Shown one piece after another: positions 1,255 through 10,668 of a stretch of 37,721 bases of DNA. Where the stretch lies: positions 1 to 37,721 of IMG/VR virus record IMGVR_UViG_2778261460_000005; one strand, 5' to 3'. Below the pieces are notes generated by a model, which had not been told where the DNA came from, made no database searches, and was given only the letters and a program-made list of their open reading frames with translations. This DNA is from a virus. Lineage: Duplodnaviria > Heunggongvirae > Uroviricota > Caudoviricetes. The translations under genes were made by a program, and so were the position numbers. Each line of letters opens with the position of its first letter. Position 1 is the first letter of the stretch.

Positions 1255-1368
1255 ATAAAACCGGGTGATGCAAAAGTAGCCATTTGATTCACAAGGCCAT
1301 TGACGCATCGCCCGGTTAGTTTTAACCTTGTCCACCGTGATTCACGTTCGTGAACATGTCCTTTCAGG

Positions 1369-6897: not shown

Positions 6898-7452
6898 TTG
6901 ATGAGTATAGAAATGGATCTACTCGTTATTCTCGGACGAGTGTTCAGTAATGAACCTCTGGAGAGAACCATGTATATGATCGTTATCTGGGTTGGACTTC
7001 TGCTTTTAAGCCCAGATAACTGGCCTGAATATGTTAATGAGAGAATCGGTATTCCTCATGTGTGGCATGTTTTCGTCTTTGCTCTTGCATTTTCGCTAGC
7101 AATTAATGTGCATCGATTATCAGCTATTGCCAGCGCCAGATATAAGCGATTTAAGCTAAGAAAACGCATGAAGATGCAAAACGATAAAGTGCGATCAGTA
7201 ATTCAAAACCTTACAGAAGAGCAATCTATGGTTTTGTGCGCAGCCCTTAATGAAGGCAGGAAGTATGTGGTTACATCAAAACAATTCCCATACATTAGTG
7301 AGTTGATTGAGCTTGGTGTGTTGAACAAAACTTTTTCCCGATGGAACGGGAAGCATATATTATTCCCTATTGAGGATATTTACTGGACTGAATTAGTTGC
7401 CAGCTATGATCCATATAATATTGAGATAAAGCCAAGGCCAATATCTAAGTAA
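6898..7452 (+). CDS. sieB: superinfection exclusion protein B
   Basis: 184 aa, ...MDLLVILGRVFSNEPLERTMYMIVIWVGLLLLSPDNWPEYVNERIGIPHVWHVF. Matches lambda SieB. It runs opposite to the pL operon, as in lambda. The exact start is uncertain. Confidence 0.92.
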   Translation: MMSIEMDLLVILGRVFSNEPLERTMYMIVIWVGLLLLSPDNWPEYVNERIGIPHVWHVFVFALAFSLAINVHRLSAIASARYKRFKLRKRMKMQNDKVRSVIQNLTEEQSMVLCAALNEGRKYVVTSKQFPYISELIELGVLNKTFSRWNGKHILFPIEDIYWTELVASYDPYNIEIKPRPISK

Positions 7453-7776
7453 CTAGGTAAGAGGAATCGATTTTCCCTTAATTTTCTGGCGTCCACTGCA
7501 TGTTATGCCGCGTTCGCCAGGCTTGCTGTACCATGTGCGCTGATTCTTGCGCTCAATACGTTGCAGGTTGCTTTCAATCTGTTCGTGGTATTCAGCCAGC
7601 ACTGTAAGGTCTATCGGATTTAGTGCGCTTTCTACTCGTGATTTCGGTTTGCGATTCAGCGAGAGAATAGGGCGGTTAACTGGTTTTGCGCTTACCCCAA
7701 CCAACAGGGGATTTGCTGCTTTCCATTGAGCCTGTTTCTCTGCGCGACGTTCGCGGCGGCGTGTTTGTGCATCCAT
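7453..7776 (-). CDS. N: antitermination protein N
   Basis: 107 aa from MDAQTRRRERRAEKQAQWKAANPLLVGVSAKPVNRP (arginine-rich motif). The track ORF extends 44 codons upstream of the true start. Confidence 0.95.
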   Translation of the reverse strand: MDAQTRRRERRAEKQAQWKAANPLLVGVSAKPVNRPILSLNRKPKSRVESALNPIDLTVLAEYHEQIESNLQRIERKNQRTWYSKPGERGITCSGRQKIKGKSIPLT

Positions 7777-7933
7777 CTGGATTCTCCTGTTAGTTAGCTT
7801 TGGTTGTGTGTGGGAGTCGTAGTCCTGAACGAAAACACCCCGCAATGGCACATTGGCTGCTAATCCGGATTCGCACTTCCGGCCAATGCTTCGTTTCGTA
7901 TCACACACACCAAAGCCTTCTGCTTTGAATGCT

Positions 7934-7965
7934 GCCCTTCTTCAGGGCTTAATTTTTAAGAGCAT
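7934..7965 (-). promoter_or_regulatory. nutL (boxA + boxB)
   Basis: The minus strand reads TGCTCTTAA (boxA-like), an 8-nt spacer, then GCCCTGAAGAAGGGC (boxB hairpin). It lies between pL and N. Confidence 0.9.
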
Positions 7966-8002
7966 CACCTTCATGGTGGTTAGTGCGTCCTGCTGATGTG
8001 CT

Positions 8003-8066
8003 TAGTATCACCGCTAGTGGTATTTGTGTCAACACCGCCAGAGATAATTTATCACCGCAGATGGTT
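8003..8066 (-). promoter_or_regulatory. pL promoter with operators OL1, OL2, OL3
   Basis: Three 17-bp CI operators: TATCACCGCTAGTGGTA (8006-8022), CAACACCGCCAGAGATA (8030-8046) and TATCACCGCAGATGGTT (8050-8066). On the minus strand, TTGACA is the -35 and GATACT the -10. Confidence 0.93.
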
Positions 8067-8224
8067 ATCTGTATGTTTTTTATATAGATTTATTTTTTGC
8101 AGGGTTGTGTGGCTTGGGAGGTGATCGAGAGATCAGAATTGCGTTGTTTAGTGAGTTGCACCTATTAATTTTAAAATAAATACAATTGGTTATGTGTTTT
8201 TAGGTGGGGCGATCGAGAGGCAAA

Positions 8225-8249
8225 GAAAACCCGGCTCGGTGGCCGGGTT
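8225..8249 (-). terminator. intrinsic terminator ending the immunity-region transcript (lambda t-imm-like)
   Basis: The minus strand reads ACCCGGC-CACCGA-GCCGGGT followed by TTTCTTTG. It begins 8 nt after the stop of the 285-aa ORF. The flanking sequence resembles lambda downstream of rexB, as I recall it. Confidence 0.8.
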
Positions 8250-8256
8250 GATGGGA

Positions 8257-9114
8257 TTATCGTTTATTTCTTTGATGTTTCTTTGCAGACTCAGCTTGAG
8301 TGTTTCCATACCTGCGTTTACCGCTATTGTTTTTTCCTCTAGGCTTGCCTTTTTTTCGATCTTCCCACCAGTCAGGTGCCGGGTCTGGCTCAACATGTAA
8401 AGCATCGGCAAGTCCTGATATCAAGCTGTATGACTGAACTCCATCAATGTGCTCTGACAGTGATGGGGTAACATTCTGTCTTAGTGGATCAAGAATAAAA
8501 TCAATACCTTTAATTCTGGCGTGTTTGGCGGCAGGCACAAAGTCTGAGTCCCCAGCAACAAGGACAATTACATCAACAAGTTTTTCATAAGCTAAAGTCG
8601 TGATATCCATCCCTAGCTTGATATCAACTTGTTTTTGTTTGATGTCATAGTAAAAATCATCATTTGTCAGTTCATCCCATTTTTTCGTTCCTTTCATCAG
8701 AGCATCAAGGGAGAATGTAGTTAGTTGCCATCGCTTATTATCAACAAGATTCCCTAATCTTAAGGCTGTTTTTCGAGTTTTTCTTAACTCTTCATGCAGC
8801 TCCGTTCTCAGAATATATGATTTTTCGAGTTTGAAATTCTTGCGACCAGGCGTCTTATTGCCAGGCTCAGGAAGTGGAAGGCGTGTTTGAATGTCGAGTG
8901 GTGGACAGTCATAGAAGTAAATTCTATAAAGCTCAAGCGGTTCCCTACGTTCTTGTGATTGACGTTTTCCATTAAGATGGGAAAGAACCATTGACCATAT
9001 TACTTTCATTATGCATTGCGCAGTCAGTTCATGCTCGGCGAAGTGTTTACGATGCGTAGCATGAACACGCTGCATGAAAAAACCCGCATCAATTAAAATT
9101 GCTGCTTTCTTCAT
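8257..9114 (-). CDS. NYN/LabA-like (PIN-fold) nuclease-domain protein with Lys/Arg-rich C-terminal tail; occupies the rexAB position
   Basis: 285 aa. It has the acidic motifs expected of NYN domains: AAILIDAGFF (D9), KQVDIKLGMD (D164, D170) and VLVAGDSDFVP (D189, D191). The C-terminus is WWEDRKKGKPRGKNNSGKRRYGNTQAESAKKHQRNKR. The gene is AT-rich compared with its neighbours. Confidence 0.75.
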   Translation of the reverse strand: MKKAAILIDAGFFMQRVHATHRKHFAEHELTAQCIMKVIWSMVLSHLNGKRQSQERREPLELYRIYFYDCPPLDIQTRLPLPEPGNKTPGRKNFKLEKSYILRTELHEELRKTRKTALRLGNLVDNKRWQLTTFSLDALMKGTKKWDELTNDDFYYDIKQKQVDIKLGMDITTLAYEKLVDVIVLVAGDSDFVPAAKHARIKGIDFILDPLRQNVTPSLSEHIDGVQSYSLISGLADALHVEPDPAPDWWEDRKKGKPRGKNNSGKRRYGNTQAESAKKHQRNKR

Positions 9115-9121
9115 AAGAGTC

Positions 9122-9184
9122 CCAAAAAAATAGCCCAGAGCCGTTATGCAGATATTAACAATTGTCTGCGAACGGGGCTGGGCT
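9122..9184 (-). terminator. long imperfect hairpin plus U7 tract between cI and the NYN gene (terminator or attenuator)
   Basis: Minus-strand RNA: AGCCCAGCCCCGUUCGCAGAC-loop-UCUGCAUAACGGCUCUGGGCU then AUUUUUUUGGG. The three stem segments (7+5+5 bp) pair 9132-9138/9178-9184, 9141-9145/9171-9175 and 9148-9152/9165-9169. The U-tract ends 8 nt before the ATG at 9114. Confidence 0.7.
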
Positions 9185-9194
9185 TGGTTTAATT

Positions 9195-9224
9195 AATCTA
9201 TGCCAAGTTGACTGTGCCGTCAAC
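9195..9224 (-). promoter_or_regulatory. putative sigma70 promoter for the NYN gene, overlapped by an inverted repeat
   Basis: The minus strand reads TTGACG (9223-9218), a 17-nt spacer, then TAGATT (9200-9195). A perfect inverted repeat GTTGAC-N6-GTCAAC (9207-9224) overlaps the -35. No experimental support. Confidence 0.4.
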
Positions 9225-9241
9225 ATAAAACTTACTTCCTA

Positions 9242-9958
<717 letters not shown>

Positions 9959-9965
9959 TTAAATC

Positions 9966-10029
9966 TATCACCGCAAGGGATAAATATCTAACACCGTGCG
10001 TGTTGACTACTTTACCTCTGGCGGTGATA
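9966..10029. promoter_or_regulatory. OR3-OR2-OR1 operators with divergent pRM and pR
   Basis: TATCACCGCAAGGGATA (9966-9982), TAACACCGTGCGTGTTG (9989-10005) and TACCTCTGGCGGTGATA (10013-10029), followed by the GGTTGCATGTACTAAGGAGGTTGT cro leader. Confidence 0.95.
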
Positions 10030-10046
10030 ATGGTTGCATGTACTAA

Positions 10047-10256
<210 letters not shown>

Positions 10257-10263
10257 ATAACCC

Positions 10264-10295
10264 CGCTCTTACACATTCCAGCCCTGAAAAAGGGC
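10264..10295 (+). promoter_or_regulatory. nutR (boxA CGCTCTTA + boxB GCCCTGAAAAAGGGC)
   Basis: Sequence read directly; it lies between cro and cII, as in lambda. The tR1 region follows. Confidence 0.9.
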
Positions 10296-10354
10296 ATCCA
10301 ATTAAACCACACCTATGGTGTATGCATTTATTTGCATACATTCAATCAATTGTT

Positions 10355-10397
10355 ATCTAAGGAAATACTTACATATGGTTCGTGCAAACAAACGCAA
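10355..10397 (-). promoter_or_regulatory. pRE (CII-activated promoter for repressor establishment)
   Basis: The minus strand carries the TTGC-N6-TTGC CII site (TTGCGTTTGTTTGC, 10384-10397) inside the cII 5' end, with AAGTAT as the -10 downstream. Identified from knowledge of lambda. Confidence 0.7.
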
Positions 10398-10668
10398 CGA
10401 GGCTCTACGAATCGAGAGTGCGTTGCTTAACAAAATCGCAATGCTTGGAACTGAGAAGACAGCGGAAGCTGTGGGAGTTGATAAGTCGCAGATCAGCAGG
10501 TGGAAGAGAGACTGGATTCCAAAGTTCTCAATGCTGCTTGCTGTTCTTGAATGGGGGGTCGTTGACGACGACATGGCTCGATTGGCGCGACAAGTTGCTG
10601 CGATTCTCACCAATAAAAAACGCCCGGCGGCAACCGAGCGTTCTGAACAAATCCAGATGGAGTTCTGA
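10375..10668 (+). CDS. cII: CII transcriptional activator
   Basis: 97 aa from MVRANKRNEALRIESALLNKIAMLGTEKTAEAVGVDKSQISRWKRDWIPKF. The track ORF starts 20 codons too early. Confidence 0.96.
   Translation: MVRANKRNEALRIESALLNKIAMLGTEKTAEAVGVDKSQISRWKRDWIPKFSMLLAVLEWGVVDDDMARLARQVAAILTNKKRPAATERSEQIQMEF

Follow-up and report, generated by a model that had tools for sequence, protein, structure and literature searches.

An uncatalogued, conserved leader RNA and probable terminator of a mobile NYN-nuclease cassette in lambda-like prophages

In a lambda-immunity prophage (IMG/VR record IMGVR_UViG_2778261460_000005; its 37,721 nt are the whole stretch of DNA analyzed and are called the window below), a promoter-like element and a 53-nt hairpin with a U-tract stand between the cI repressor gene and a gene for an NYN-domain nuclease. 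Our best description of this element is a leader RNA and probable terminator that is conserved, absent from the catalogues and part of a mobile cassette with the nuclease gene. The same architecture was observed in distant bacteria and phages, together with compensatory changes in the stems, joint diversification of RNA and protein, and rare copies of the hairpin that have no NYN gene. In our best reading, to which we give about an even chance, the leader RNA would be made by termination and would act as a specific partner of the adjacent nuclease.

Anatomy of the leader and its gene

Coordinates of all features are collected in Table 1. As originally predicted, a sigma70 promoter-like element with an inverted repeat over its -35 box is present at 9224..9195 on the minus strand. 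It scores 9 of 12 matches in the promoter scan, and the predicted transcription start (about 9188) lies approximately 4 nt upstream of the hairpin. The palindrome is a candidate operator. The three-segment hairpin, claimed to have 53 nt and about 17 bp, agrees with the sequence and was recovered by RNAfold, whose minimum-energy and centroid structures of the leader are both this exact hairpin; by itself it folds with -24.0 kcal/mol. It contains two internal loops in addition to its 12-nt loop. The expected U7 tract follows (9130..9124), and the gap from the U-run to the ATG is 9 nt, not the 8 nt first given. The weak GGGA proposed as a Shine-Dalgarno-like element is present as well.

Table 1. 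Features of the cI-NYN-pL region, with positions in the window
Feature	Position	Strand	Basis or remark
pR	10003..10031	opposite to cI-strand features	scan
cI repressor gene, lambda-type	9955..9242	-	ORF list; LexA-family repressor annotation in identical prophages
Last 18 nt of cI, GAAGAGACGTTTGGGTGA	9259..9242	-	left junction of the mobile NYN cassette
cI stop codon TGA	9244..9242	-	sequence
Perfect inverted repeat GTTGAC/GTCAAC	9224..9219/9212..9207	-	6-nt gap; overlaps promoter-like element
-35 box TTGACG	9223..9218	-	promoter scan
Promoter spacer, 17 nt	9217..9201	-	sequence
-10 box TAGATT	9200..9195	-	promoter scan
Three-segment hairpin, 53 nt, 17 bp	9184..9132	-	RNAfold, covariation, covariance-model match
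Basal stem AGCCCAG/CTGGGCT, 7 bp	9184-9178/9138-9132	-	RNAfold
Middle stem CCGTT/AACGG, 5 bp	9175-9171/9145-9141	-	RNAfold
Apical stem GCAGA/TCTGC, 5 bp	9169-9165/9152-9148	-	RNAfold
12-nt hairpin loop CAATTGTTAATA	9164-9153	-	RNAfold
A + U7 tract directly 3' of hairpin	9131..9124	-	sequence; terminator-type tail, predicted RNA 3' end
GGGA, weak Shine-Dalgarno-like	9123..9120	-	sequence
NYN gene ATG	9114..9112	-	sequence
NYN-domain nuclease gene, 285 aa, basic C-terminal tail	9114..8257	-	Pfam, fold, residues
Terminator-like hairpin just past NYN stop codon	8249..8228	-	terminator scan; right-hand end of cassette
pL	8032..8004	-	promoter scan; N downstream on same strand
nutL boxB GCCCTGAAGAAGGGC	7948..7934	-	downstream of pL

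The location of the hairpin and U-tract in the nuclease gene's own leader, directly behind cI, is as predicted. Because of its GC-rich basal stem (AGCCCAG/CUGGGCU), followed by A and U7, the element has the anatomy of an intrinsic terminator. Textbook terminators are shorter and less interrupted: 53 nt, two internal loops and a 12-nt loop place this hairpin outside the compact type (stem of 5-14 bp, loop of 3-8 nt). The standard terminator scan of the window does not list the hairpin because its loop exceeds 8 nt. The d'Aubenton-Carafa d-score of the hairpin is negative, yet that of a control terminator is negative too.

Taken alone, the site is unexceptional. The 141-nt leader differs from its shuffles by z = -2.3 only. 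In a scan of the whole window for hairpins followed by T residues (dG <= -20 and at least 6 T in 8) the NYN leader ranks 4th, and shuffled windows contain about 3.6 sites of this quality. The lone site is thus not beyond chance, and the case for it rests on conservation and covariation in related loci.

Several other candidate features of this interval were considered and dropped. A leader peptide was abandoned since the first ATG after the predicted start (about 9188) is that of the NYN gene itself, and a bidirectional terminator since the plus strand carries no converging gene. Antisense pairing between the loop and the NYN translation start amounts, by eye, to only 5-6 bp or so and is not conserved. 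The minimum-energy fold also contains a long-range helix that joins the sequence following cI to the NYN start, but the variants do not keep it.

The 285-aa product is a genuine NYN-domain protein. It matches Pfam PF01936 (NYN) with 36.8 bits, above the cut-off of 24.2, and has no other Pfam match. Its AlphaFold2 model (pLDDT 85) has the NYN domain of MARF1 as its top and only significant fold match in PDB, and the acidic residues D9, D69, D164, D170, D189 and D191 are invariant across the family. The protein belongs to phrog_5783, whose function is unknown. PADLOC assigned it to no defence system, giving only weak HEC-09 and NYN matches. Its homologues number 7,034 in a protein search with E <= 1e-5.

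Conservation and covariation of the leader RNA

The comparative set consisted of 29 distinct IMG/VR leader variants and 80 GTDB loci. A conservative scan found the order promoter, hairpin, U-tract and NYN gene in 69 of 101 distinct upstream regions. These loci come from Enterobacterales, Pseudomonas, Acinetobacter, Pasteurella, Burkholderiales, Acidobacteria, Bacteroidales and Elusimicrobia, and P22-like and P2-like phages carry the same architecture. Regions negative in the scan belong almost entirely to one clade, Rhodanobacteraceae, where the leader has a different GC-rich hairpin and no U-tract.

Spacing within the leader is constrained. Hairpins of the 69 loci measure 49-83 nt, mostly 51-58 nt, with longer ones in Bacteroidales; each is followed by a tract of 5-9 U, and the start codon comes 13-58 nt further. 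The -10 box ends 8-12 nt upstream of the hairpin base across all lineages. The promoter type itself varies with lineage (TTGAC...TAnnnT, and TAnnTTTG in Bacteroidales), and diverged relatives keep TTGAC, TA...T and the 17-nt spacing. The claim that the nuclease gene has a promoter-like element of its own is thereby strengthened, as the position is conserved in very different lineages. Other elements are less stable: the palindrome is conserved only in part, as TGAC(G)-N4-6-(C)GTCA, and a GGA 5-8 nt upstream of the ATG is semi-conserved. Both are missing from the Proteus type.

Comparison of related loci bore out the expectation that the structure would be conserved. Among close relatives (67-95% full-length protein identity to the window), 5 of 17 pairs show compensatory changes, no pair is broken on a single side, and 98.5% of cells are paired; none of 500 shuffles attains the observed values. 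When Gammaproteobacteria at 42-100% protein identity were analyzed, RNAalifold independently yielded the same three-stem fold, with compensatory changes in 14 of 16 pairs. A covariance model finds a single match per locus, on the coding strand, and its one match in the window spans 9184..9124 with 82 bits. These changes indicate that the hairpin structure is real and conserved.

Conservation of sequence is also high. Hairpins remain 100% identical where the coding sequences have diverged to 76-88% identity and the promoters to 68-81%, and they are still 81-96% identical at a coding identity of 69-75%. The apical loop motif yAUUnGUUAr persists down to 42% protein identity. Judged by these comparisons, the hairpin is the most conserved part of the cassette, and its sequence appears to be conserved well beyond the needs of termination.

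More distant protein clades have a second class of RNA, composed of a basal stem, GCAGUA(A/C)GC, a variable stem-loop, GCCGAnCC and then U residues, and the variant of Bacteroidales has an additional stem. RNA classes follow the protein clades in a rough tree. The covariance model of the first class finds no leaders of the second one, so that a single ancient RNA family is unproven. MAFFT with RNAalifold gave a poor consensus for hairpins of the second class, apparently through misalignment, and their structures were taken from individual folds.

The leader RNA is uncatalogued. Rfam gave no match on the leader at E <= 1 in the region 7400-10400 of the window, the abiF motif (RF03085) included. 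With 12 diverse NYN leaders it likewise gave no leader match, only one tRNA and sub-threshold matches outside the leaders. No PADLOC system was found for it, and our literature search found no paper describing an NYN-associated leader RNA.

A mobile cassette and hairpins without a nuclease gene

Phage lambda carries rexA-rexB in the slot between cI and pL, and its cI-rexA spacer is unrelated to the window from the first base past the stop codon. Stx2a-converting phages match the cassette at 99.6% identity (window positions 9260 to 8175); there an unrelated repressor of the 933W type and an additional gene of 113 aa precede it. Repeats of the cI-tail sequence given in Table 1 are found at the cassette junctions. 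We propose that the cassette is a self-contained, mobile unit of RNA plus nuclease which replaced rexAB behind lambda cI. It resembles phage "morons", reportedly described by Juhala, Hendrix and co-workers in 2000 as autonomous promoter-gene-terminator units inserted between conserved phage genes: the identical cassette stands in different backbones, behind different repressors of lambda-immunity prophages and Stx2a phages, with promoter-like and terminator-like sites at both ends. Unlike morons, which have a terminator after the gene, the NYN cassette adds a second terminator-like element between promoter and gene.

In complete E. coli genomes the leader is present in 275 of 5,426, whereas at least 80% of leader plus gene is found in only 74. 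Examples of an intact cassette are those of phages ev099 and 2B8 and of E. coli TST3. In the cryptic prophage CP-933H of O157:H7, IS1203 interrupts the NYN gene behind its leader (305,678-305,823 in TW14359), and in a second strain the gene is split. Such frequent disruption with the leader kept would fit a costly gene that needs tight repression.

A BLAST search with the leader matched the hairpin and U-tract alone in three kinds of phage record. One is the P22-like Proteus phage Brookers, whose hairpin again has a LexA-type repressor on one side and an NYN gene on the other, in flanks too diverged for BLAST. It contains a compensatory change from GCAGA/UCUGC to GUAGA/UCUAC.

The second kind comprises the virulent Chaseviridae BSBP01 and vB_Shi_2KOFFS, which carry a 98%-identical hairpin and neither an NYN gene nor an NYN-type promoter. 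The copy is in sense orientation, and the spanin genes, together with a small acidic ORF, lie just 3' of it. Flanks of this slot are conserved in about 45 related genomes, and in the two relatives that were aligned, phiEcoM-GJ1 and SA91KD, an odd tRNA-like gene of 92-95 nt occupies the slot instead. ST32 is another relative of BSBP01 that, like phiEcoM-GJ1, has the tRNA-like gene in this slot and no hairpin. The segment which Chaseviridae share with the window begins with ACCA at 9188, the predicted transcription start, and ends within the U-run. Its borders indicate that the shared segment is the predicted RNA itself.

The third kind is a lambdoid IMG/VR contig, L085. There a Q-like gene and then a putative pR' precede the hairpin, a tRNA-Arg(UCU) gene follows it, and the U-tail runs directly into the 5' end of the tRNA. 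Exactly in place of the hairpin, a canonical terminator of 11 bp stands in the nearly identical prophage of E. coli E3. This natural swap supports the view that the element is able to take a terminator's place, and it fits the terminator function which had been attributed to the NYN leader.

Copies without NYN are rare, representing two independent events. The search covered 50,697 records of the "phages" set by BLAST, and IMG/VR and JGI metagenomes by exact pattern. The pattern scan of JGI metagenomes returned 9 matches, all of them NYN-linked; a relaxed 18-nt pattern added 5 matches in IMG/VR, all by chance and with no hairpin. Seventeen concatenated hairpins of the other classes, compared with phage genomes by BLAST, found only NYN-linked or truncated copies. 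Since the wider scans gave no further copies, captures of the hairpin without its gene seem to be uncommon, and plain terminator swapping could explain one of them, because the L085 copy sits in a terminator slot.

Possible roles of the leader RNA

We suggest the following course of events. Transcription would start from a constitutive sigma70 promoter about 4 nt before the hairpin, which together with its U7 tail would function as an intrinsic terminator. Most transcripts of this promoter, as well as those arriving from the cI operon, would end there, and a discrete RNA of approximately 60-65 nt would be released. A minority of transcripts would be read through, and the NYN ribonuclease would be translated from its weak ribosome-binding site. 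The hairpin RNA, marked by its invariant loops, would then be a specific ligand of the adjacent nuclease. Its most likely effect is restraint, either as an antitoxin-like inhibitor, a pseudo-substrate or an autoregulatory operator, and the terminator would set a large excess of RNA over protein, as in type III toxin-antitoxin systems and AbiF-RCd22. Phages that have the hairpin alone would supply a decoy.

The terminated leader is probably a functional RNA in its own right, because it is conserved beyond the needs of termination and occurs free-standing in phages that have no NYN gene. That NYN recognizes it may be deduced from the fact that the NYN protein is the only constant partner of the RNA. 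We favour inhibition of the nuclease over a role as autoregulatory target, since phages would gain nothing from carrying an activator.

A simpler explanation acts in cis only. The hairpin and U7 would end the cI unit and throttle the NYN promoter, the short RNA would be a by-product, and conservation of the sequence would reflect termination kinetics or binding of host factors (Hfq, ProQ) instead of NYN. We find this somewhat unlikely, even though the terminator anatomy of the site, the replacement of a canonical terminator in the late region of L085, the rarity of NYN-less copies and the persistence of the leader beside disrupted NYN genes all agree with it. Terminators normally do not hold their loops and internal loops invariant while the coding sequence drifts to 76% identity, nor would one normally expect a loop motif to persist in them down to 42% protein identity. 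On the comparative evidence, a stop signal alone appears to leave these features unexplained, and equally the co-diversification of RNA class with protein clade and the copy in virulent phages. The latter occupies a tRNA slot immediately ahead of lysis genes, where efficient termination would be a disadvantage. It is improbable that the element is no terminator at all and that a 5'-terminal stabilizing hairpin and a U-rich translational enhancer set the half-life and translation of NYN mRNA. In every lineage the hairpin does start only a few nt from the predicted 5' end, Shine-Dalgarno sequences are weak or absent, and a U/A-rich stretch lies immediately 5' of the ATG. However, a GC-rich basal stem with 5-9 U immediately behind it in 69 of 101 loci is a terminator signature, in L085 the unit takes the place of a canonical terminator, and both the NYN-less copies and the invariant loops would have no explanation.

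The leader terminator had originally been read as an attenuator or conditional switch, overridden by terminator-resistant polymerase from an incoming lambdoid phage or by a leader-binding factor. The terminator-like element in the leader stands, whereas a classical attenuator with competing folds is unlikely because the predicted start, only about 4 nt before the hairpin, leaves no room for a competing helix of the attenuator or riboswitch kind. Switching by N or Q of an incoming or induced phage is very improbable. A terminator in the gene's own leader and the lambdoid context speak for it, and in L085 polymerase modified by Q would pass the hairpin, which a Q-like gene and a putative pR' precede. 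But N and Q act in cis, on transcripts bearing nut or qut; the leader (9241..9115) contains neither and is too short for such a site. Since nutL boxB is situated past pL and faces the other way, N-modified polymerase travels away from the cassette. The architecture is moreover found in chromosomes of Pseudomonas, Burkholderiales, Acidobacteria and Bacteroidales and in a P2-like phage, i.e. also in phyla that have no lambda-type antitermination. The idea of a leader-binding factor survives, and we favour NYN itself as this factor. Overall, what had been noticed in the sequence is confirmed, and its interpretation is partly supported. As for a functionless chance hairpin in an AT-rich intergenic spacer, the modest z-score and the comparable sites in shuffled windows would allow it, but covariation, deep conservation and conserved position effectively refute it.

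Preferring the leader RNA as a specific partner of NYN, we can tentatively go one step further. It is possible, if less than probable, that NYN and hairpin constitute a new phylum-spanning RNA-protein toxin-antitoxin or abortive-infection module, similar to type III, which phages counter with the RNA alone. Such a module would consist of a single structured RNA and the NYN ribonuclease, with the terminated leader of about 65 nt as antitoxin or pseudo-substrate. The counter-move would have been made by Chaseviridae in the tRNA slot and by the lambdoid phage in its late leader. A still more specific version, in which the loop U-GUU-A-A copies the anticodon loop of tRNA-Asn and NYN is an anticodon nuclease held by a tRNA mimic, is doubtful.

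Among known systems, type III toxin-antitoxin loci (ToxIN, CptIN, TenpIN) have the same order of promoter, non-coding RNA, Rho-independent terminator and endoribonuclease gene. Their terminator sets the excess of RNA over toxin mRNA. They are likewise carried by mobile elements and have been linked to abortive infection. Phage PhiTE is said to escape ToxIN by acquiring a ToxI-like RNA (Blower and co-workers, 2012), which parallels the NYN-less hairpin copies in phages. Type III antitoxins are, however, tandem repeats of 34-36 nt, whereas the NYN leader is one 53-nt hairpin and the leader in the window contains no repeats; the toxins are ToxN, CptN or TenpN, and the cassette protein has an NYN/PIN-like fold. 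Membership in type III fails on these two differences, and we infer that the NYN cassette works like such a system but is not one.

A structured RNA with no repeats precedes a toxic effector in AbiF-RCd22 from a C. difficile prophage, where RCd22 lowers expression in cis and neutralizes AbiF in trans by direct binding (bioRxiv 10.1101/2025.04.15.648962). The Abi_2/AbiD/F protein and the RF03085 motif are nevertheless unrelated to NYN and its leader. In RNA anti-CRISPRs (Racrs), single copies of an RNA element from a host defence system reside in phage genomes and reportedly serve as decoys (PMC10651486); that system consists of CRISPR repeats and Cas proteins, whereas a decoy role of the NYN hairpin is deduced only. 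The rexA-rexB pair of lambda shares with the cassette the cI-pL slot and an accessory function expressed by the prophage, presumably against other phages. It differs in being co-transcribed with cI from pRM/pRE with no intervening terminator, and its proteins are unrelated to NYN. We therefore place the element within the theme of RNA antitoxins and attenuators, probably as an antitoxin-like RNA or a regulator of the nuclease.

If the RNA is indeed the partner of the nuclease, it belongs to a large uncharacterized RNA-protein module, as the number of homologues suggests. The catalogues would gain a new family of structured RNA and the RNA-antitoxin systems a new family of toxins, and virulent coliphages of the therapeutic type would possess a natural RNA-based counter-defence. 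Even if the element acts only in cis, a lambda-immunity prophage would have exchanged its co-transcribed rexAB for a transcriptionally insulated, self-regulated cassette. The module occupies the classic exclusion slot in lambda-like, P22-like and P2-like prophages, including those of Stx phages and CP-933H. Prophage accessory slots that hold the cassette are those known for exclusion genes, like rexAB in lambda; in phiE202 the cassette adjoins a toxin-antitoxin pair and the integrase.

Nuclease genes behind the leader, and a phage slot that holds the hairpin

An intact leader often precedes a disrupted NYN gene. In E. coli O157:H7 (strain TW14359, prophage CP-933H) the gene is interrupted by IS1203 after about codon 127, and in strain AJ5 it is split. 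Among 5,426 complete E. coli genomes, the leader was present in 275, but the leader-plus-gene sequence was covered to 80% or more in only 74. Disruption of the nuclease with retention of its leader may stem from a cost that the nuclease imposes, or it may be no more than an effect of clonal sampling of O157.

The hairpin is also found at the place of another RNA gene. In two relatives of phages phiEcoM-GJ1 and SA91KD, it occupies the slot that holds an odd tRNA-like gene in these two phages. The D-arm of this gene appears to contain an insertion of about 20 nt, and its anticodon loop apparently reads UUCGACA, with C at position 37; depending on the tool, the gene is assigned to Arg, Leu or Ser. 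Because the slot holds either the tRNA-like gene or the NYN hairpin, we propose that it may be a place for RNA-based counter-defence.

Promoter and leader variants

In enterobacterial cassettes (promoter, hairpin with U7 and NYN gene), the palindrome over the -35 element is semi-conserved, and many variants contain an additional TTGAC about 30 nt upstream. The palindrome is a candidate operator of a regulator. Further downstream, the conserved loop of class-1 leader RNAs (the window type) includes U-GUU-A-A, identical to the anticodon loop of tRNA-Asn; class-2 RNAs, which belong to more distant NYN protein clades, keep AGUA facing GA in an internal loop similar to the loop-E/sarcin-ricin motif. 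Both are likenesses of short motifs only.

Rhodanobacteraceae homologues carry a -10 element of TAGAAT type, then a GC-rich hairpin unlike other leaders, for example GCCGCCAGC-CCCAUCCU-GCUGGCGGC; no U-tract follows the hairpin in L105-L148. This different hairpin without a U-tract suggests that terminator function may have been lost or never present in these leaders.

The most stable hairpin-plus-T site of the window is a separate one. Symmetric and with a T-rich tail on either strand, it resembles a bidirectional terminator.

Coordinates of the features (L-numbers denote comparison loci, each with its own numbering)
Feature	Location	Remark
Palindrome TGAC(G)-N4-6-(C)GTCA over -35	window 9224..9207; homologous positions in L013-L040, L091-L092	
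Class-1 conserved loop	window 9164..9153	
Class-2 RNA	L170 2409-2470	example
Rhodanobacteraceae NYN leaders	L105-L148, ~60-100 nt upstream of position 2501	Dyella, Rhodanobacter, Frateuria
Hairpin-plus-T site	window 1260..1316	both strands; dG about -27 kcal/mol
Disrupted NYN genes, leader intact	L171 3132-4754 (TW14359); L003 2687-3544; L041-L044	
tRNA-like gene, 92-95 nt	L172 945-1039 (phiEcoM-GJ1); L173 764-855 (SA91KD)	Carltongylesvirus phages examined
Hairpin+NYN cassette	L184 1378-3348	Burkholderia phage phiE202, P2-like
Last codons of lambda-type cI, GAAGAGACGTTTGGGTGA	window 9259..9242; L002 2620-2648 and 3001-3020 (Stx2_EH0505)	repeated junction
Second, partial repressor 3' end	L002 6237-7021	Stx2_EH0505

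Genomic surroundings of the cassette

In phiE202, the cassette has a ribonuclease-toxin/antitoxin pair on one side and an integrase on the other, a location typical of hotspots for accessory or defence genes. In Stx2a phages, a remnant of the cI-end junction lies 3' of an unrelated repressor gene. After it come a gene of 113 aa, which has a strong SD, and then a second junction copy 5' of the NYN cassette. The junction looks like a recombination linker that would allow cargo genes to be stacked behind repressors.

Stx2_EH0505 contains a second, partial repressor 3' end past an IS3-family element and, 3' of it on the opposite strand, matches to the NYN leader and to the 3' end of the NYN gene. 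This arrangement points to a duplication of the region in association with the IS.
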